This document shows, piece after piece, positions 6,053-64,000 of a stretch of 64,000 nucleotides of DNA (within the stretch, counting starts at the first letter, position 1; each line of letters begins with the position of its first letter). The stretch is from NCBI GenBank assembly GCA_965248695.1, contig CBDFKD010000002.1, forward strand, positions 5,161,691 to 5,225,690. Direction: 5' to 3'. Both the position numbers and the translations under genes were made by a program. This stretch comes from Acidobacteriota bacterium. GTDB taxonomy: Bacteria > Acidobacteriota > UBA890 > WLXD01. The notes beneath the pieces were generated by a model that did not search any database, had not been told where the DNA came from, and was given only the letters and a program-made list of their open reading frames with translations.

Positions 6053-8971
6053 AGCGTCTCTTGTCGACCGCACCCGCACTGGCCAGTGCGATCATCCTCT
6101 CGCTCACCGCAGGCGCCTGTTCCAGTCCCGACCCTGCTGACCAGACGCCGTCCGGCTCGGCCGTCGATCGGCCGCTGATGCCGGACTGGGACGCGGAGCG
6201 CAGCGAACGACTGGCGTTTTCCGGCGAGCCGTTTCGCACACCGGAGGGCTTTCGCGTCGAGGAAGTTGCCGGCGACGATCTCATCGGATCGGCCGTGAAT
6301 CTCACGTTCGCGTGGGATGGCCGCCCCATCGTGGCGCTCGAGCAACGGGGACTCGTAATTCTCGACGACGGCGACGGAGACGGTCGCTACGATCGAATGA
6401 CACGGCTCTCAGAAGAGATCAGCACCGCTCACGGCCTTTATGTGCTCGGCCCGGACGATCTGCTCGTGCATGCCGACGGGCCGAGTGATGGCCCCGGCCT
6501 CTATCGTGTGAGCGGCTGGCAGGAGGGTCCCTCGGAGAGCACGGTCGAGCTGCTTCGACGGTCGCGCGGAGGGATCCAGGAGCACGGTCCCCACACGATC
6601 ACCCGAGGCCCCGACGGAGCAATTTACCTGCTCTTCGGCAATCATGCCGTTCCCGACATCGAGCCCTCACAGCGCTCACCACTTCGCGCGCTCCAAGAGG
6701 ATCAGCTACTACCCGTCATTCTGGATCCACGCGGTCATGCAAACACCATTCGTGCCCCGGGCGGAACCATCTGGAGAGTCGACCTCGAGGCCGACTCCTG
6801 GGAGCTGTTCGCCGGCGGGCTGCGCAATCCATTCGACATGGCCTTTTCTCCTGCCGGCGGCCTCTTTGTCTACGAGGCGGACATGGAGTGGGATCGCAGT
6901 CTCCCGTGGTACCGACCCACGCGGGTCCTGCACGCGATCCCGGCCGGCGACTACGGGTGGCGAACCGGCTCCGGCAAAGTAGCGTTCGATAACATCGATA
7001 CGCTCCCCAGCGTCGCCGACGTCGGCCGCGGCTCGCCGGTGGGCGTGGCCTTCTACCGCCATCACGCCTACCCCGCGGCGTTCGACGGCGCGTTATTCCT
7101 AGGCGATTGGGCACGTGGCCGCATACGCGTTCTCTTTCCGCAGGAGCACGGCGCTAGCTGGCAGGGGGAGGCCGTCGACTTCGTTCTTCGAGAGCCTCTC
7201 AATGTGACCGACCTCGCGGTGGGTCCTGACGGCCATCTGTATTTCACCATCGGCGGTCGCCAGACCACTGGTGGGCTGTTCCGAGTGGTCTACGACGGAT
7301 CCGACGGTGGCGCCCGAGGGAGCATGCAAGGCGGTCAGGGGAGCGCTGTCGAGAGGGCCTTGCACCAGCCAATGCCGCGATCCGCCTGGGGCCGCGCGGC
7401 CATCGCACAGCAGCGAGCTGCGGCCGGGGCAAGCTGGGGAGAAGGCCTGCGCGACGCTGTCGAGGACACCGATCGATCGAGGTTGGAGAGACAGAGCGCG
7501 CTGGAGATCCTGCAGCTCTATGGCCCGCAACCGTCTGTTGACGATTTGCGGAGATTCCTGGCGGCAGATGATGCCGGCGTACGAGCTACCGTCGTGACCC
7601 ACCTGGGAACCCGAACCGGCCCTAGCGTCTACCGCGCACTGGCAGTCGCACTGGAAGACCCGGATGCGCGCGTTCGGCGCCGGGCGGCAGAGGCGCTGGC
7701 GCGCTCCGGGAGCGCTGGAGAGGGCGCAACCTGCGGACATCGAAGCTATCCTCGCCGGCCTGGTCGGCCTTCTCGACGACGAGGATCGGTTCGTTCGGTA
7801 CGCTGTCCGCGAGACGCTCGCTCGAGTGGACCCGGATCGCTGGATCTCCAAAGTGGATCTCGCCGGGCCACCTTCGAACGCCGCGTTCGAGGCGATGCTT
7901 GCCTTGGTTCTCCGTCCGGGCTTTCCCGATGCCGAGCTCGTCTTCGAACATCTGCGCCTTCACGTCCAATCACAACCCGGCGAAGTACTGCTGGGCTCCT
8001 ATTTACGCGTGCTCGAGCTCGCCCTGGTGCGCTCCAGGGACGCTGGGGTCGACAGCGTGGAGCTCGAGGGACTGGGCCAGTCCATGTTGGATTGGTTCCC
8101 CACGCAACGCCGCGAGCACAACCGCAAGCTCGAGCGCATCCTCGCCTACCTGGCTCCGCCGGGGGCGGTGGACGCGCTGACGGCAAGGTTGGCGCTCGGC
8201 CGGAACCAGGAGGACGAGATCCACACCCTCTACGCCTTGCGAGCGATCGAAGGCGACTGGAGCGAGGCCCAGCGACAGAGCGTCGTCACCTGGTTCGATC
8301 GTGCTCGAGCGTTCACCGGCGCAGCCAGCATGGTGGGCTATATCGACGCCCTCTGGCAGCGGTGGCTAGCGAACCTCTCCGACGCCGAGCGCGTGGCGGC
8401 GGTCGAACGCCGGCAGGTCTGGTTGAGCGCCGAGCGGGACAGGATCGCGGCACTGGTGGCCGACGAAGACCTGCCGAGCGAGGATGAGCGCCGCATGCTG
8501 CGTCAGATGAGCTTCGATGAGCTGGCAGAGTACGTCGAATACGACGTCATGGCCTACGAGCGCTTCGACCCTGCGCACGGCGAACGCGTCTTCCAGCGTG
8601 CCCGTTGTGCCGACTGCCACGTTTTCGGCGATGTCGGTCGCGGTGGCGGACCCGACCTCTCGACCGTCGTCAGTCGCTTCAGGCGGCGCGAGATCCTGGA
8701 GTCGATCGTCTACCCGTCACGGGTGATCTCCGACCAGTACAGTGCCCTTCGCGTCCGCCTCCGTGACGGACGGAGATACGTCGGCATGCACGCCGCCGAG
8801 AGCGAAGAGGACCTCGTCCTGATCACCGCTACGGGCGAACGGGTCGTCCTGGACAAACAGCTGGTCAGCGAGCGCGAGCCGGCCGACGTATCCCTGATGC
8901 CGGAGGGTCTACTCGAGGCCATGAGCTTCGACGACTTGATGAGCCTGATGCGATACCTGGAAGAAGGGTAG
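6049..8971 (+). pseudogene. Frameshifted lipoprotein: beta-propeller-like domain + HEAT repeats + C-terminal cytochrome c (CxxCH)
   Basis: Lipobox LTAGAC after MKRLL. The reading frame switches from frame 1 to frame 2 near 7722-7724 within GAGGGCG. HEAT-like repeats continue across the switch (AAEALARSGSAGE / AQPADIEAILAGLVGLLDDEDRFVRY). Heme motif CADCH near the C-terminus. Confidence 0.65.
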
Positions 8972-9419: not shown

Positions 9420-10901
9420 TCAATCGCCCGTTTGGCCGAACGTCTCCATGTACCACTTCACGAACCGAGCCGGGCTCCCCTCGTGAGTGGCGTAGCGGCC
9501 AGCGCTGTAGCCGCCCGACTGGATACCGAGGTGGTTGTTGCCGGTAAGCCAGATGTCTTCCATCGTCGTGACGTGCCACAGCGCCTTGAGCTCGTCCGGA
9601 TCGTAGTCGCGCCCCTCGACCGCATCCGGATGCACGAGCCAGATGACCTCGTTGTCGGTTCGGTCGTGCGCACGCGGTGTGTATCGGGCGATCATGACGT
9701 GGTCGTCGTAGCCCTGCCAGTAACCGGTTTGCCAGCGGGTCGTGGCGATATCGGTCTCATGGGTCCACGCGATCCTGGTTGGCAGGAGAGGAGCGACGGG
9801 GTTGCCATCCATGGACCCAGTGACGAACCCCGGGTTGAGCTCGCCGTCAACGTCGCCATAGCCGCCCATGCCTGACGCCCGTCGTTCGGCCGCTGCCGGG
9901 ACCCACTCGTCGACCGCCGTCGCGTGGGCGGCCTTCTGTTCGTCGGTGCGCTCTTCGTCGTAGTTGTGCGCTTTCACCAAGGACCCGTGCGCTGGTCCGC
10001 AGTGGTAGCACTCGATGAAGTTCTCCGTCGCGAGCTTCCAGTTCGACTTCAGCGGGTAGTACTCGCGGGCCGCGACCTTGAGCTTGTCGAAGCGGTAAAT
10101 TTCGTTCAGCGCTCGCACACGAGTCACGGTCGATTCGAACTCGGGGGGCGAATCCGATCGAGATAGATTGATGAAGATCTGGCCAGCGGCGACGCGCACA
10201 TGGCAGGGGAGAAGTCCGTTGTCCGCCGGGTCGAAATCGTCCTGCATGCCATAGGCGTAGATCAGACTTCCTTCGGTGTCATACGTCCAGGCGTGGTACG
10301 GACAGCGGAACACCGGCGAGTTGCCGTTCTGGCCAAGCTGCTTCACTGACAAGCGTGGATCCTGCGGCCTCGTATCCGCGTCGTGGCGGCACACCCGTGA
10401 GCCGCGGTGCCGGCAGACATTGTGGAAGGCGCCGACACTTCCGGTCTGGCTACGAACGAGCAGGATGCTCTCCGAGCGCCCGAACTCGAAAACGAAGAAA
10501 TCGCCCGGGCTCGGAATGCGGCTCGCCTGGTCGACGTACTGCCAGAGATTCTCCGCCAGGAAAGCCTCCTCCACCGCATAGTGCTTCGGGTCCAGGTAGT
10601 ACTCGGCCGGAATCGTGGTGCCTTCTTTCCAGCCGTTGATGCCGGCGTTCTCGGGCACGGTTACTGCGAACCGTGGCGCACCCTTGCCACCGTAGCCCGG
10701 TGCTTCCGCCGGCAAGTCTTTGCGGGCAACCGCAACCGGCGAGCCGATCGCATTCGCTGTTGATGGCCCCTGTGGTGGCGCACCGAACAGGGAGTTGGGC
10801 AAAGCGATTGCCGCGGTCCCAGCGGCTACCGAGGACTTGGCGAACGTGCGGCGGCTTACGCGCTGTCCGCCGTTGACGTCGTGACTGTCCTCGTTGCTCA
10901 T
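9420..10901 (-). CDS. Rieske [2Fe-2S] non-heme iron oxygenase alpha subunit with Tat signal
   Basis: SRRTFAKSS twin-arginine motif. Rieske CRHRG...CPYHAW. Mononuclear iron motif ECYHCGPAH. Confidence 0.8.
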   Translation of the reverse strand: MSNEDSHDVNGGQRVSRRTFAKSSVAAGTAAIALPNSLFGAPPQGPSTANAIGSPVAVARKDLPAEAPGYGGKGAPRFAVTVPENAGINGWKEGTTIPAEYYLDPKHYAVEEAFLAENLWQYVDQASRIPSPGDFFVFEFGRSESILLVRSQTGSVGAFHNVCRHRGSRVCRHDADTRPQDPRLSVKQLGQNGNSPVFRCPYHAWTYDTEGSLIYAYGMQDDFDPADNGLLPCHVRVAAGQIFINLSRSDSPPEFESTVTRVRALNEIYRFDKLKVAAREYYPLKSNWKLATENFIECYHCGPAHGSLVKAHNYDEERTDEQKAAHATAVDEWVPAAAERRASGMGGYGDVDGELNPGFVTGSMDGNPVAPLLPTRIAWTHETDIATTRWQTGYWQGYDDHVMIARYTPRAHDRTDNEVIWLVHPDAVEGRDYDPDELKALWHVTTMEDIWLTGNNHLGIQSGGYSAGRYATHEGSPARFVKWYMETFGQTGD

Positions 10902-55471: not shown

Positions 55472-55914
55472 GGAGAAGATGGGCGTTGACGGTACCTTAT
55501 CACGATACTGTGATGCTGCGAGTTGACGGCGCTTTCGGCGACTCACCTGGCGGGCAGCGATTATCACGGGCCATCCGGCGGGTATCGGGCGCACCCCCCA
55601 GTTCCTCCCCCACCGTAGAAAACACCGTGCGGCCCTTCGAAAAGGCCGCCCGGCGCTTGCGGGCACGTCGAAGCCCCTCAGCTTCGCGCGGCGGGAAAGA
55701 TAGCACGCGAGAAGATCGCCGGCACTTCAGCTGCCTGCCAGCAGATGCGGCGCCAGGCATGGCACAGGTGCTCGCGGCCAAAAAGCGGTCTTGATGAGCA
55801 ACCAAAAGAGCGGCCGGAGGAGGTATCGTAGCGAACGTACCGTTCCGACCGCTCTTTCGTTCTTCGTGTACCGGGTGGTGGTGGGCTGGTGCCGGCTCCG
55901 GGCTTCCTATCTAC

Positions 55915-55947
55915 GGGTCACGGGTTCGATCCCCGCCACCTCCACAC
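55915..55947 (+). other. tRNA/tmRNA 3'-end-like fragment (possible former att site)
   Basis: ACGGGTTCGATCCCCGCCACCTCCACA gives a T-arm plus a 3' acceptor strand. No convincing 5' half lies within normal tRNA distance. Confidence 0.45.
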
Positions 55948-57032: not shown

Positions 57033-57119
57033 GCCATCGTGGCGAAATCGGCAAACGCACCCGGTTTGCGACCGGGCGGCTGTCTAGGCCTTGTGGGTTC
57101 GAGTCCCACCGATGGCACC
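57033..57119 (+). tRNA. Class II (long variable arm) tRNA, Leu-type body, anticodon UGC
   Basis: Acceptor 57033-57039 pairs with 57110-57116. 3-bp D stem with an 11-nt loop. Anticodon stem 57060-57064 pairs with 57072-57076, loop TTTGCGA. 16-nt variable arm. T arm GTGGG TTCGAGT CCCAC. Discriminator A followed by CC. Confidence 0.7.
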
Positions 57120-57539: not shown

Positions 57540-57727
57540 GGTTTTGAGATAACGAACCAAAGGTGGTCGTCGTGAATGCCGGTCGTGTCGTGAAAGCTGT
57601 CGCCGGCCTCAACAATCACCCCGCTGCACCAGCTGATCGGATTATGTCGACCTTCTTGCTGAACGCGTTTGTTAGGCGAGTAAATCTGCGCATGTTCATG
57701 CGCATGGTCAGGTTCTGCCGCTCGATT
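57540..57727 (-). pseudogene. IS1-family transposase 3' fragment
   Basis: Encodes ERQNLTMRMNMRRFTRLTNAFSKK, compared with ERQNLTMRMSMRRFTRLTNGFSKS in the intact copy at 59059-59895. Downstream frames are broken, and the fragment is truncated at 57727. Confidence 0.6.
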
Positions 57728-57887
57728 CGCCGGAGAGCCGATGAGCTAGAAGAACTTCTCATCGAAAGCGTCGATGACCCATCCGACCTCGACCACGAGC
57801 GCGTCAAGGCTCTCGAATACAGCCAAGCCGGTATCAGGCCCCATACCTTCGCCGAAGACTACGCGCGCGACCACAAGCGTATCCATT
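57726..57887. repeat. 162-bp perfect direct repeat, copy A
   Basis: Identical base for base to 62546-62707. Confidence 0.9.
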
Positions 57888-58752: not shown

Positions 58753-58827
58753 GGCCTCGTGGACAACAGACGGTCAAGTCGCGGGACTGGAAATCCCGAG
58801 ATCCCGGTTCGACACCGGGCGGGGCCT
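58753..58827 (+). tRNA. Class I tRNA, Cys-like body, anticodon GGA
   Basis: Acceptor GGCCTCG pairs with CGGGGCC (one G-U pair). Anticodon stem CGGGA/TCCCG with loop CTGGAAA. 4-nt variable loop. T arm CCCGG TTCGACA CCGGG. Discriminator T. CCA not encoded. Confidence 0.65.
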
Positions 58828-58999
58828 CACCTTTCTCCCCTGACAGCAAGGAGGGTCAGATGATAGCGCGAGCACCACCGTCAGCGCATCCCTGAACGCC
58901 GAAGGGGCCGGGGTGCGTCTCACGATGCTCCCCGGCCACCTATAAGTCGCCCGGCCCGCTGCACGAACAGCGAACCGGGCTAGATCCAAGACGCGGGCA

Positions 59000-59960
59000 T
59001 AGGCCGCATCGGACCCTCACAGCCATTGTGGTCCTGCCCGCCATCCGGAGCAAGACCGATGGCGAACGTACTGGCCCCCGAGAAGAAGCGCATGATCATC
59101 GCCGCCCTGGTGGAGGGCAACAGCATCCGCAGCATCGAGCGCATGACCGGCTGTCACCGAGACACGATCTGCCGGCTGCTCGTGCGGGTAGGTGAAGGCT
59201 GCGAAGCCATGATGCGCGAGCGGTTCACCGGTTTGCGCCTTGACGATCTCCAGGTCGATGAAATCTGGACCTACGTCCAGAAGAAGCAGGCCACGGTGAT
59301 CAGGTCCGGCAAGCGCGTGAATCCCAAGCATGGTGATCAATGGGTTTTCGTCGCGCTCGATGCCGAAACGAAGTTGGTGCCGCATTGGATCGTCGGCAAG
59401 CGCGACGGCTACAACTCCTACCAGATGATCTCGGAGCTGGCCCGTAGGATCGACGGGCCGTTCCAACTGACCACGGACGCTTTCGCTGGCTACAAGGCCG
59501 CTCTCGGAGTCGTGGCGGCTCGTGGTATCGACTACGCACAGCAGACCAAGAGCTATACGGCCACGAATCCATCCTTCGGACGTTACTCACCACCAAGGGT
59601 CAGCCACTGCACAACTCAGGTTGTGGCCGGAGATCCAGATCCGGAGGCGATCTCCACGAGCTACGTCGAGCGTCAGAACCTGACCATGCGGATGAGTATG
59701 CGACGGTTCACCCGGCTGACGAACGGCTTCTCAAAGTCGCTGCGCAACCTGGAAGCCGCTGTGTCGCTGCACTTCGCCTGGTACAACTTCGTGCGGATTC
59801 ACGACAGCCTGCGGAGCACGCCGGCCGTTGTGGCCGAAGTAGTTAGTACCGAGTTGGCGATGGACGACCTGCTGGCCTTCGAGGCGGGCTACTAATGCTC
59901 GGTGATTTCCACAGGATATCCACAACGGGTGGCGCTCCTGTTGATGATGACCCCCAACAT
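59000..59960 (+). mobile_element. IS1-family insertion sequence (ends approximate)
   Basis: Single transposase ORF. Short similar inverted blocks CCATTGTGG at about 59023 and CCACAACGG at about 59921. Exact termini not resolved. Confidence 0.4.
59059..59895 (+). CDS. IS1-family transposase
   Basis: N-terminal HTH (GNSIRSIERMTGCHRDTICRLL). DDE region. C-terminal YVERQNLTMRMSMRRFTRLTNGFSK motif. Confidence 0.75.
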   Translation: MANVLAPEKKRMIIAALVEGNSIRSIERMTGCHRDTICRLLVRVGEGCEAMMRERFTGLRLDDLQVDEIWTYVQKKQATVIRSGKRVNPKHGDQWVFVALDAETKLVPHWIVGKRDGYNSYQMISELARRIDGPFQLTTDAFAGYKAALGVVAARGIDYAQQTKSYTATNPSFGRYSPPRVSHCTTQVVAGDPDPEAISTSYVERQNLTMRMSMRRFTRLTNGFSKSLRNLEAAVSLHFAWYNFVRIHDSLRSTPAVVAEVVSTELAMDDLLAFEAGY

Positions 59961-60809: not shown

Positions 60810-61424
60810 CTACCCTGGCAGGCGGCCGGGGCTGGCGCGAACGCCGAGCACGGTGTTGGTTTCCGGGTCGATGTCGCATTGGTAGGTGTGGTTCTGCCAA
60901 GCACCGAGGCCATTTTGGAACTGGATCTTGTCGCCGATCAGGGTGAGGGTTCCGGCAGACTGATCCTTCCAGCGGAAGCGGCTGAACTTTGGCTCAAGGA
61001 AGCCGTCTGTCCACTGGTGGCTGTATTGCGCTAGCCGCTCGATGCGGTCTTCGCAGTACACACCTGTAGAGATGTGCCTGTTGCCCCAGCAGTTGAGGTC
61101 TTGCCGACAGGCCGTGTCGCTGACCGAAGGTGCGGAAGACGAGCCTGACCCTGGGTCATCCGTGCTGAGGACGTAGACGCAAAAAGCCAGTCCTAGCAGA
61201 AGCATCACCACACATCCCATGGCGGTCTTGCTGGCCTGCTTTTTCTCTGCAGCCGCCGTCTCGGCGGTGAGGCTGGGTGCCGAGTCCTCGGGCTCGGGGG
61301 CTGCAGTGGCTGGGGGCGCGGCCGCGGCCGGATCCTCCGTTCCAACCGGGCAACCGCACTGCGGACAGGCTGCCGCCTGGTCGGAAATCTGAGCCTTGCA
61401 TTCAGGGCATTCGATCAGAGCCAA
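60810..61424 (-). CDS. Zinc-ribbon / single-TM protein with an extracytoplasmic Cys-containing domain
   Basis: N-terminal CPECK...CPQCG, Ala/Pro linker, TM helix MGCVVMLLLGLAFCVYVL. Confidence 0.5.
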   Translation of the reverse strand: MALIECPECKAQISDQAAACPQCGCPVGTEDPAAAAPPATAAPEPEDSAPSLTAETAAAEKKQASKTAMGCVVMLLLGLAFCVYVLSTDDPGSGSSSAPSVSDTACRQDLNCWGNRHISTGVYCEDRIERLAQYSHQWTDGFLEPKFSRFRWKDQSAGTLTLIGDKIQFQNGLGAWQNHTYQCDIDPETNTVLGVRASPGRLPG

Positions 61425-61661: not shown

Positions 61662-61784
61662 GGCATAAAGCATGGAGTGGATTGCGGCCAGTTTCGGATT
61701 TCTAGTCGGGGTCATCATCGGTGTTCGATGGGGCGTAGCTTCGGTGCTGCGCGTGGCTCGGGATCGTCGCCGTATTCGGCTCCG
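61662..61784 (+). CDS. Candidate 40-aa hydrophobic/Arg-rich peptide
   Basis: GGGAGG lies 8 nt upstream of the ATG. Peptide MEWIAASFGFLVGVIIGVRWGVASVLRVARDRRRIRLRVP. Overlaps the 3' end of the minus-strand HTH gene. Confidence 0.3.
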
Positions 61785-62119
61785 AGTTCCCTAACAATCT
61801 TTTCAAGCTCGTCTACGTCCGCTTCGTATTCTTCTTTGATCTGGAAAAGCAAATCCATCAGGCGGAGGGTTCGTATGCGCGAGCGCGTGAGCCCCGGCAG
61901 ATGAACCGCCAAGGCATCAATGAGCCCCTGGCCGCTCGGGTGCGACTTGCCCGTGATCCAGTTACTCAGCGTCGGTTGTGGGACACCTATTAGGCGGGCA
62001 GTAGCGCTCTTGTTCATGCCGCTTTCCTCGATCGAAGCCTCGATCGCCGAGCCCAGGTACCGCCTGAGGTAGATGTGTCCGTGTTTCTTGCGGGGTCGCA
62101 CGCGATCAATACTTAGCAC
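61715..62119 (-). CDS. HTH (Cro/CI-type) regulator
   Basis: GMNKSATARLIGVPQPTLSNWITGK. Divergent from 62182-62415. Confidence 0.6.
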   Translation of the reverse strand: MLSIDRVRPRKKHGHIYLRRYLGSAIEASIEESGMNKSATARLIGVPQPTLSNWITGKSHPSGQGLIDALAVHLPGLTRSRIRTLRLMDLLFQIKEEYEADVDELEKIVRELGAEYGDDPEPRAAPKLRPIEHR

Positions 62120-62181
62120 TTCCTGCCGACGGGTGCCGGAAAGCTATTGCGCTATCCAGTGAAACAGGTTATCTTTCTTCT

Positions 62182-62415
62182 ATGAGATTCAGCAGAGAAA
62201 CACTCCGATCTGCACGGGAAGAGGCGGGAATGTCCCGCGAGGACGCTGCCTTCTTCTTGCGGCAGTCTGGAAACGGTGTGTCGGTACGCACACTGCTTAA
62301 TTGGGAGAGCGGTCGGTCGGAACCGCCGGCAGGCCAACTCGTGAATTTGGCGAATTTGTACGGCGTGAACCCAGTTGCATTTTTTTCACCAGATTCAACC
62401 AGTAACGCAGCCTAA
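62182..62415 (+). CDS. XRE-family HTH regulator
   Basis: GMSREDAAFFLRQSGNGVSVRTLLNWESGR. Confidence 0.6.
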   Translation: MRFSRETLRSAREEAGMSREDAAFFLRQSGNGVSVRTLLNWESGRSEPPAGQLVNLANLYGVNPVAFFSPDSTSNAA

Positions 62416-62545
62416 GACGAATACTCATACTCGACGAGGTCGCATAGAAACCCCATGACGCTACCGAACGCAGACACCCACACGCCACTGCGGAATCAGG
62501 CGGGTAGCGCAGTGGGCGAGGCCATCGTCACGCTTCTCATGGAGC

Positions 62546-62707
62546 TTCGCCGGAGAGCCGATGAGCTAGAAGAACTTCTCATCGAAAGCGTCGATGACCC
62601 ATCCGACCTCGACCACGAGCGCGTCAAGGCTCTCGAATACAGCCAAGCCGGTATCAGGCCCCATACCTTCGCCGAAGACTACGCGCGCGACCACAAGCGT
62701 ATCCATT
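62546..62707. repeat. 162-bp perfect direct repeat, copy B
   Basis: Identical to 57726-57887. Covers the 3' end of the minus-strand gene 62566-63327. Confidence 0.9.
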
Positions 62708-63327
62708 TGCACTTTTGGGGGTGCAGAGAAGACGAGGGTCGCGATTTTTGCGTTGTGTACCAGGCGGGGCTTGGTGACGGCGATGAACGTTTTGGGCTGG
62801 CCAGCGGATTCGTCATCGACGAGAGCGTTCAAACGGAAGCGCTCGGGCATCGCGGCGACGACCGAGAGCAATTTGTGCTTGTTCCGGTTGTCCAGTCTTC
62901 TCAGAAGGGAGAGGGGCGCCATCACGGGATCGTCACCTTGGTACGGCTGAACTCGCTCGATCAAGGATCTGGCCTCAGCGGGAAGGCTGGCAATGCGCCG
63001 AGCCCCGCGCGATTCGTATGCCCGTTCGGAGTCGAAGATCGGAAACAGGGTCAGTGTGTCATCAAGATCCGCCCCAGAAAGCTCCCAGGCGATGTAGTCG
63101 AGCGAGCACCGCAGGTTGTGGATGCAATCGCCGATGGTCAGCGCCCACTCACTACTGGGCAAAGCAGGAGGATCTTTGACGCGAGCGACGTAGCGGACTT
63201 CGTCGATCTCAGCCTCAACGACGATTCGATAGAGGTTCGCTTCAAAGAAGGAGTCAGTTTCTCTTTTAAGCGCTTCGAGGTGCTGTCTCGCCCGACGAAG
63301 TTTGGCGCGACTTCCATCAAGCCCCAA
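62566..63327 (-). CDS. Unknown protein downstream of an XRE regulator
   Basis: ORF open to 63432. Start chosen at the TTG at 63327, 9 nt after GAGGAG. Blocks GDCIHNLRCSLDYIAWEL and LRRLDNRNKHKLL. The plus-strand ORF 62455-63378 is judged an antisense shadow. Confidence 0.5.
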   Translation of the reverse strand: MGLDGSRAKLRRARQHLEALKRETDSFFEANLYRIVVEAEIDEVRYVARVKDPPALPSSEWALTIGDCIHNLRCSLDYIAWELSGADLDDTLTLFPIFDSERAYESRGARRIASLPAEARSLIERVQPYQGDDPVMAPLSLLRRLDNRNKHKLLSVVAAMPERFRLNALVDDESAGQPKTFIAVTKPRLVHNAKIATLVFSAPPKVQMDTLVVARVVFGEGMGPDTGLAVFESLDALVVEVGWVIDAFDEKFF

Positions 63328-63389
63328 TTGGCACAGCTCCTCGGGATTGAGGTCGACGACGACGGGGAGGCGGCGTGAGCGGCGTGAGG

Positions 63390-63605
63390 CTAGTCGAACT
63401 CGACGCCTTCCAGAAGCTCGTCGACGGTGCATTCCAGGGCGCGGGCGATCTTCGCGACGTTCTCGATTCCAGGGCTTCTTGTGTTGCCGCTCAGAATCTT
63501 GTTCAGCTGGCTTCGAGCCATCCGCGCCCGATAAGCCGTCTCCTCGATCGAGATTTCCTTCTCCTGGATTACGGCTCGCACACGCTGCCCAAACGTCAAG
63601 CTCAT
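63390..63605 (-). CDS. XRE-family HTH regulator
   Basis: Start at MSLTFGQRV. HTH ISIEETAYRARMARSQLNKILSG. Confidence 0.65.
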   Translation of the reverse strand: MSLTFGQRVRAVIQEKEISIEETAYRARMARSQLNKILSGNTRSPGIENVAKIARALECTVDELLEGVEFD

Positions 63606-63657
63606 GCGCCAGACGCTATTCGTGTGAGTTTCCCCCATCAATCTTCGCAAATACTAC

Positions 63658-63687
63658 TTGACGAATCTGCAACTTCTCTTGTATAAA
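63658..63687 (+). promoter_or_regulatory. Sigma70-like promoter within a divergent switch region
   Basis: TTGACG at 63658-63663, an 18-nt spacer, then TATAAA at 63682-63687. Flanked by the inverted motifs ATCTGC/GCAGAT and GCAAAT/ATTTGC. Confidence 0.45.
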
Positions 63688-63731
63688 TATAGACAGCGCA
63701 GATTTGCAAGGTCATAACCGGAAGCTCGATC

Positions 63732-63941
63732 ATGGATAATCGCATCAAGGAAGAACGCGAAAAGCGGGGCATGACTCAAATGGCCTTGGCTGTCGCCGCT
63801 GGGCTCCACCCAGGACACGTCAGCCGGATCGAAAACGGCTCCGGCTGCGAGCTGAAGACTGCACGCAAACTCGCTGACGCGCTCGAAGTAACCCTCGATG
63901 AGCTAGTCGGGCCGCGACGAAGCTGCCTAGGAGCCCCATGA
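63732..63941 (+). CDS. XRE-family HTH regulator (Cro-like position)
   Basis: GMTQMALAVAAGLHPGHVSRIENG. Confidence 0.65.
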   Translation: MDNRIKEEREKRGMTQMALAVAAGLHPGHVSRIENGSGCELKTARKLADALEVTLDELVGPRRSCLGAP

Positions 63942-64000
63942 CGCTACCGAGCCCCACCACCCCCACGCCACTGCGGAGTGAGGCGAACGGCGCAGTCAAC

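Follow-up and report, generated by a model that had tools for sequence, protein, structure and literature searches.

The gene pair and its coding strand

The window (the whole stretch of 64,000 nucleotides analysed here) is a prophage region, in which tape measure, major tail and baseplate proteins are present. Towards its right-hand end, a gene for a small XRE-family regulator and a gene for a 253-aa protein follow one another on the minus strand, flanked on the plus strand by two further XRE genes, and the 3′ end of the larger gene occurs a second time elsewhere in the window. The features are as follows:

57649-57726 (also given as 57649-57725), minus strand: IS1-like transposase fragment of 26 codons (tblastn), joined directly to the duplicate
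57726-57887, minus strand: exact 162-nt duplicate of the 3′ end of the 253-aa gene, 100% identical to 62546-62707
59026-59895, plus strand: intact IS1-like transposase gene (Pfam DDE_Tnp_IS1, weak)
62182-62415, plus strand: convergent XRE HTH gene, 77 aa (Pfam HTH_3, 1e-09), followed by D2 copy 1
62432-62513, plus strand: D2 element, copy 1, after the convergent XRE gene 62182-62415
62455-63378, plus strand: antisense shadow ORF, 307 aa, of which only the first ~20 codons (D2 element) are conserved
62566-63327, minus strand: gene for the 253-aa protein, TTG start (ORF listing, translation, homologues)
63390-63605, minus strand: XRE-family HTH gene, 71 aa (ORF listing, translation; Pfam HTH_3, 4.5e-10)
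63606-63731, no strand: divergent intergenic region, the 126 nt between the 63390-63605 and 63732-63941 XRE genes
63732-63941, plus strand: divergent XRE HTH gene, 69 aa (Pfam HTH_3, 9.1e-14), followed by D2 copy 2
63915-63996, plus strand: D2 element, copy 2, after the XRE gene 63732-63941

The product of 63390-63605 contains the HTH_3-type helix-turn-helix of XRE/Cro-C1 regulators (HTH_19 and HTH_26 are also matched in Pfam), matches PHROG transcriptional regulator/repressor families and, among the models of PADLOC-DB 2.0.0, resembles generic regulators only (capH, control protein). A TTG at 63650 is an alternative start that would extend it to 86 aa. The 253-aa gene lies 62 nt downstream on the same strand, and its TTG start, the position of which is common to all homologues, is preceded at a distance of 9 nt by GAGGAG (63342-63337, read from the sequence); the convergent XRE gene is downstream of it. 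Within the divergent intergenic region, a promoter scan placed a minus-strand promoter-like site (-35 at 63715-63710, -10 at 63691-63686). A plus-strand site that the scanner did not flag was seen by eye (TTGACG at 63658-63663, an 18-nt spacer and TATAAA at 63682-63687), and the -10 boxes of the two opposed sites overlap. Operator-like repeats were sought in the divergent regions, including this one, and none was found. An earlier note on this DNA had described an XRE gene and a gene for an unassigned protein as one arm of a divergent switch. The pair is real by the ORF listing, Pfam matches and homologues, and the divergent arrangement is borne out by the XRE gene on the opposite strand and the overlapping promoter-like sites. 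We infer that the 253-aa gene is co-transcribed with the upstream XRE gene from the divergent promoter pair and is hence XRE-controlled.

This organization resembles that of lambda cI-rexAB, where prophage accessory genes stand beside a repressor: here, too, a small XRE-type regulator is followed by a same-strand, non-structural cargo gene in a prophage regulatory region with a divergent XRE. The 253-aa protein, however, has no sequence or profile relation to known exclusion or defence proteins in PHROG or PADLOC.

The gene is overlapped along its length by the plus-strand ORF 62455-63378, and it is conceivable that this ORF is the expressed gene and the minus-strand ORF its shadow. The plus-strand ORF opens at a conserved GGAG-N6-ATG unit that directly follows the stop codon of an XRE gene; seven copies preserve its first ~20 codons, with changes mostly at third positions; and the codon-2 to codon-2 register of the two frames makes GC content by codon position uninformative for choosing between them. 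Comparison with relatives, however, favours the minus frame throughout. The minus-frame protein has full-length homologues at 37-41% identity, and its profile is matched by 19,115 relatives with invariant Q, P and H. Among the window and two distant loci (L002 and L003), the sense frame scores 166-183 bits against 87-107 bits for the antisense frame, about a twofold difference. In a comparison with L001, a locus from a related Acidobacteriota genome that carries a 92% relative, codon changes in the minus frame are synonymous in 15 cases and non-synonymous in 18, as opposed to 8 and 25 in the plus frame. In the comparison of paralogs, 74 bits in the sense frame stand against 38 bits (38.5) in the antisense frame, and the latter score comes mainly from an alignment beginning at the shared D2 N-terminus (first ~20 residues). 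Neither is an open antisense frame anything special, an idea that we rejected, since 30 of 106 family genes (28%) have one, and 11 of 21 (52%) at a GC content of at least 0.60; TTA, CTA and TCA codons are absent from the sense gene. Because homologues, frame scores, codon changes and the common openness of antisense frames all favour the minus frame, the plus-strand ORF is, on these comparisons, a shadow ORF rather than a conserved gene; as a conserved protein it is already refuted, and its being the expressed gene is barely credible. The earlier note had allowed that its reading would fall if this ORF were the expressed one; by the frame scores, that objection does not apply. The minus-strand ORF 62566-63327 is a genuine protein-coding gene, so that in annotation the gene belongs on the minus strand and the 307-aa plus-strand ORF should not be called.

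The gene has also taken part in recombination. The duplicate at 57726-57887 covers its last 142 nt (47 codons and the stop) with 20 nt downstream, is matched by the family HMM and is likewise 100% identical to L001 10621-10782. The adjoining transposase fragment, for which an inverted repeat was also found, is 81% identical at the protein level to residues 214-239 of the transposase encoded at 59026-59895, which, not being matched by the IS1595 HMM, is not of the IS1595 type. The perfect copy of the last 47 codons beside an IS fragment, pointed out in the earlier note, is thus confirmed over 162 nt at 100%. When the gene is compared with L001 10001-10762, all 35 nucleotide differences fall in the first ~130 codons, whereas identity is 100% throughout the 3′ half and the flank downstream of it. 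This shows that the 3′ half was recently exchanged and that the gene is a mosaic, and together with the duplicate beside the IS fragment it upholds the recent recombination that the note had proposed. None of these features, the conserved motif blocks and the divergent XRE gene included, is at chance level. Among the IS fragments there are also tRNA calls, Arg-CCT (55874-55945), Ala-TGC (57033-57119) and Ser-GGA (58753-58828); at 87 nt and only 76 nt, respectively, the lengths of the Ala and Ser calls are unusual for those types, and these two may be fragments or phage tRNAs.

A large protein family with a predicted HEPN-like fold

A profile search over 1.84 billion cluster representatives returned 19,115 representatives at E ≤ 1e-3 and 14,387 at E ≤ 1e-10, most of them full-length proteins of 250-270 aa; a word-indexed search found 8 relatives only. 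Sampled hosts include Acidobacteriota, 'delta proteobacteria', Binatus, Actinomycetota, Dormiibacterota, Chloroflexota, Saccharibacteria, Armatimonadota and Proteobacteria, and the closest genome is an Acidobacteriota MAG. The conservation figures and family-library scans given below are based on an alignment of 114 sequences. The window protein had no match in Pfam at E ≤ 1, in NCBIfam (scanned with this protein alone) or in PADLOC-DB 2.0.0, and was below the PHROG threshold; across Pfam, PHROGs, PADLOC and NCBIfam, nothing was found for the product of either strand. The 114 relatives gave no relevant Pfam match at E ≤ 0.01 (one chance match to Atg11) and matched none of the PADLOC defence models, while a PDB sequence search with the family produced a chance match only and tblastn against deposited phage genomes found no match to the protein. 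Longer, possibly fused relatives contain no Pfam domains. Matches in protein collections are without a Pfam domain and are named hypothetical or left unnamed, as are the plasmid copies, annotated as hypothetical protein. Five of the 114 relatives weakly match phrog_13652, a family of unknown function (best E 4.7e-07). At the level of sequence, these searches place the 253-aa protein in a family that is very large, unannotated and made up of proteins of ~250-270 aa. A confident match to a characterised non-defence family, which the earlier note had named as grounds for abandoning its view, did not appear in Pfam, NCBIfam (window protein alone), PADLOC or PDB sequences.

AlphaFold2, run on the 114-sequence alignment, gave a model with a pLDDT of 93.5 and a pTM of 0.89. 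Helices are predicted at residues 4-30, 58-83, 101-111, 117-125, 138-150 and 230-252, a beta-hairpin at 34-51 and a four-stranded sheet within 157-218. The predicted fold is a HEPN-like helical bundle into which the beta-hairpin and the four-stranded sheet are inserted, with a C-terminal helix. Q127, P128 and H151 are invariant in the alignment; K9, R12, H16, G66, D67, R73, L76, D77, F95, P96, L139, D149 and K150 are at least 90% conserved, and H70 and N71 ~87-89%. The window protein keeps every one of these residues except D149, which is N, as in 7 of the 114 relatives. The polar residues of this set lie on helix 1 (K9, R12, H16) and helix 2 (D67, H70, N71, R73, D77), at Q127 and at the end of helix 138-150 (D149, K150, H151), and, judging by helix register only, would cluster in one site.

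The earlier note had quoted two motif blocks, which are present and correspond to the conserved cores of the family in the alignment. Its loose reading of the second of them, RNKH, as an Rx4-6H motif nevertheless fails: among the 114 sequences, arginine occupies position 143 in only 34%, position 144 in 10% and position 148 in 20%, and around this block only D149-K150-H151 is conserved. The up-and-down alpha-helical bundle characteristic of the HEPN superfamily is seen in the predicted structure, whereas its catalytic Rx4-6H motif is not found, the arginines 3-8 residues before the invariant H151 being variable; the other conserved Arg-His spacings are R12-x3-H16 and H70-x2-R73. Neither was there a match to a HEPN family profile (window protein in Pfam at E ≤ 1, the 114 relatives at E ≤ 0.01, PDB sequences). 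Because the arginines before H151 are not conserved, the HEPN link is, on the predicted model, a resemblance of fold without the defining motif. Compared with members of the superfamily (the MNT-HEPN toxin SO_3166, PDB 5yep; 4nqf; the HEPN domains of Csm6/Csx1 and LsoA), the family would share the helical bundle, as far as prediction goes, but differs from them in lacking both a conserved Rx4-6H and a match to a HEPN Pfam model, in the hairpin and sheet inserted into the bundle, and in the placement of its conserved residues, which occupy helices 1 and 2 as well as the C-terminal end of helix 138-150.

Foldseek against the PDB found nothing. The BFVD model A0A514TZW7 shares the whole fold (TM 0.71, E 9.6e-13); like phrog_13652 it is unannotated, and the two add no functional information. 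In structure comparison, the scores of generic four-helix bundles (p130Cas, vinculin, designed proteins) come close to those of HEPN domains, which, together with the absence of Rx4-6H, is what would be expected if the protein were non-enzymatic, a binding, scaffold or anti-defence protein with a bundle that merely looks like HEPN. Against this, three helices carry (nearly) invariant His, Lys, Arg, Asp, Asn and Gln residues, a pattern more usual for catalytic or ligand-binding sites than for scaffolds, and we consider a non-enzymatic protein improbable. The most fitting description of the family is that of non-canonical, HEPN-like proteins carried as cargo by mobile elements, and it is a candidate HEPN-like enzyme without the canonical motif. 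With at least 19,000 sequence clusters, a confidently predicted structure and a conserved polar site, it is yet nameless in Pfam, NCBIfam and PADLOC.

Carriage by IS1595-type insertion sequences

To describe the surroundings of the relatives, 150 neighbour ORFs from 46 genome loci were scanned against Pfam, and the commonest neighbour family was DDE_Tnp_IS1595. By HMM search, 20 of 47 genome loci have an IS1595 transposase near the gene, and in 16 of them the transposase is directly upstream in the same orientation; of 80 metagenome loci, 55 had enough flank, and 27 of these have such a transposase, directly upstream in 16. About 46% of relatives with enough flanking DNA thus adjoin an IS1595 transposase, and genome and metagenome loci together provide 32 cases in which it is immediately upstream on the same strand.

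At nine loci (L005, L007, L010, L011, L016, L021, L031, L040 and L053), representing eight distinct elements, inverted repeats enclose the transposase together with the family gene. The element ends read GGTAAnTATCCCTTGACTGTA and the target duplications are of 8 bp; such duplications were seen at five of the loci, L007 (CTTGCCTA), L010 (TTTCTTTG), L016, L021 and L040. L010 and L011 come from one MAG; the two copies are 99.96% identical over a unit bounded exactly by 23-nt inverted repeats (GGTAATTATCCCTTGACTGTAGA), and this unit consists of the transposase, the family gene and a 231-aa ORF. The end sequence GGnnATTAT presumably fits the ISNwi1 subgroup of the IS1595 family as defined in ISfinder. 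Because of the IS1595 neighbours, the enclosing inverted repeats and the target duplications, we conclude that the family is cargo of IS1595-family transporter insertion sequences, in which it is most often the second gene. This status was missed by the earlier note, and the papers searched on IS1595 passenger genes and on HEPN proteins in insertion sequences yielded no description of the family. Transporter insertion sequences (tIS) are defined by their passenger genes and are described as restricted to the IS1595 and IS66 families (TnCentral preprint).

In two loci, L040 (1370-3068) and L043 (1444-2945), two family-like ORFs stand in tandem, in L040 both inside one IS1595-type element with inverted repeats at 247 and 3155. 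In L013 (3863-6013), the family domain is part of ~2.1 kb of DNA uninterrupted by stop codons, directly behind an IS1595 transposase; this may represent a fusion protein or a long open frame extending upstream.

The copy in the window differs from these passengers, which are accompanied by a DDE_Tnp_IS1595 transposase, enclosed by inverted repeats and flanked by 8-bp target duplications. The HMM search found no IS1595 transposase in the window, where the neighbouring transposase is IS1-like, and the IS1595 end consensus has 0 matches there; the window copy is a transposase-less, end-less member of the family in a prophage region of repeated XRE cassettes. Other members are found on actinobacterial plasmids and in viral contigs, and one locus has an ordinary chromosomal context. 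In L144 (5032-6789) a family gene comes right after a DDE_Tnp_1 (IS4/IS5-type) transposase, and in L145 (4131-7640), a Methylobacterium integrative element, a family gene has a tyrosine integrase on one side and an Abi_alpha gene on the other.

That the gene so regularly comes straight after the transposase, in different phyla, could point to a part in the biology of the element itself. The protein would then serve the insertion sequence by regulating transposition, target choice or retention, or by assisting in them as an accessory factor, and the prophage copy would be left over or co-opted. Besides the 32 loci with the gene immediately downstream of the transposase on the same strand, and its location inside inverted repeats with target duplications, this idea draws on the persistence of the IS1595 association across phyla at protein identities down to ~30%, and on the relative P0170, which follows a DDE_Tnp_1 transposase. 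However, the same loci hold extra IS1595 transposase copies without a family gene (L030, L031, L065); the orientation to the transposase varies, with several loci convergent; no transposase is near the gene in about half of the loci; the family is also found on plasmids, in viral contigs and beside integrases; the window copy is without IS1595 ends; and a passenger gene is what defines a transporter insertion sequence in the first place. A role in transposition is weakened because of the gene-less transposase copies, the varied orientation and the many copies outside insertion sequences, and we regard it as possible if unlikely. Placement in IS1595 elements offers a testable system for asking why some of the simplest transposable elements carry a second gene, and allows a test of whether insertion sequences spread defence-like functions.

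XRE cassettes, the D2 element and proposed function

The earlier note had presented the XRE gene and the 253-aa gene as coupled. As a family trait this is not supported: an adjacent XRE gene was seen only in the window and in two modules of L001. With a crude local XRE HMM (E ≤ 1e-3), none of the other ~45 genome loci has an XRE directly beside the gene, and one is nearby in 2 of 80 metagenome loci; of the 150 neighbour ORFs scanned against Pfam, 3 contain HTH_31 and 2 contain HTH_3. The pairing is a lineage-specific local rewiring, limited to the window and one related Acidobacteriota genome, and not a trait of the family.

L001 carries two family paralogs (10001-10762 and 7559-8416) that are 33% identical, each of which follows an XRE and faces a convergent XRE. 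Over L001 6900-11850 and window 61715-64000, the DNA is laid out as tandem cassettes, each a convergent XRE pair with variable cargo between, and with divergent promoters between cassettes. There are five such cassettes in L001 (two with family paralogs, the others with small ORFs or none) and at least two in the window. We know of no described equivalent of a tandem array of convergent-XRE cassettes.

The occurrence of an XRE directly upstream on the same strand, here and at both L001 paralogs, and the HEPN-like fold, many HEPN proteins being toxins, could point to a type II toxin-antitoxin pair with the XRE as antitoxin and the 253-aa protein as a constitutively active toxin. The genes, however, are not paired across homologues: the XRE is missing from nearly all other loci, where a free toxin would not be tolerated. 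Here, moreover, the two genes are 62 nt apart rather than overlapping, and no toxin-antitoxin model in Pfam or PADLOC was matched. Since the gene mostly occurs without a partner, the protein is unlikely to be a constitutive toxin, and a toxin-antitoxin pair is in our estimate quite improbable. One relative does have a close neighbour of its own: in L002 a 96-aa ORF (9903-10193) starts on the stop codon of the family gene, an arrangement not noticed elsewhere, and is possibly a coupled partner.

The best explanation overall, to which we assign a probability of about 0.55, is that the gene belongs to a family of IS1595 cargo genes, is here under XRE control and encodes an enzyme acting on nucleic acid that benefits its carrier; our best guess for the protein is a nucleic-acid-targeting effector. 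The substrate would probably be RNA, and the conserved His, Arg, Lys and Asp residues would form the active site. The gene would be carried for its benefit to the mobile element or the host, for example by excluding competing phages or through abortive infection, and the protein would not be a transposition factor.

In the cassettes of L001 and the window, a short conserved element, D2 (~75 nt), stands after each convergent XRE gene. Its copies in L001 lie at:

L001 6941-7004
L001 8420-8510
L001 9314-9401
L001 10815-10873
L001 11489-11548

The element is laid out as a remnant of an XRE 3′ end, TAG, GGAG, six bases and an ATG that opens MTLP..TPLRNQAGGAV (~20 codons), and contains the inverted repeat CCACTGCG-N15-CGCAGTGG. 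Because variation within D2 is mostly at third codon positions, its sequence suggests that the short peptide is translated. The ORFs that open in D2 are of 62-320 aa, three of them being shadow ORFs of family genes; outside the alignment that sets in at the common first ~20 residues they show no conservation. That D2 is a structured RNA or terminator was considered and rejected (no Rfam family, no significant fold at z-scores of -0.25 to -1.7, no terminator-like site), as was an IS1595 end (0 matches to the end consensus in the window), and viral contigs contained no match to it.

A bolder reading is also conceivable. The family would be a new, non-canonical branch of HEPN-like enzymes, carried by a subgroup of IS1595 elements as their dedicated second gene in many phyla and acting as a mobile, single-gene immunity or element-maintenance nuclease. 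In the acidobacterial prophage lineage of the window it would have been captured into a tandem array of XRE cassettes, where D2, as a conserved, translated leader behind the convergent XRE, would add a further level of control by driving transcription antisense to the gene. We think this reading, taken as a whole, doubtful.

The minus-strand gene 60810-61424 of the window encodes a 204-aa zinc-ribbon protein. Its 3′ part (60810-61113) has 95% DNA identity to part of a 259-aa gene in L001 (16960-17266), and the elements of the window and L001 otherwise share little DNA over the stretch compared.
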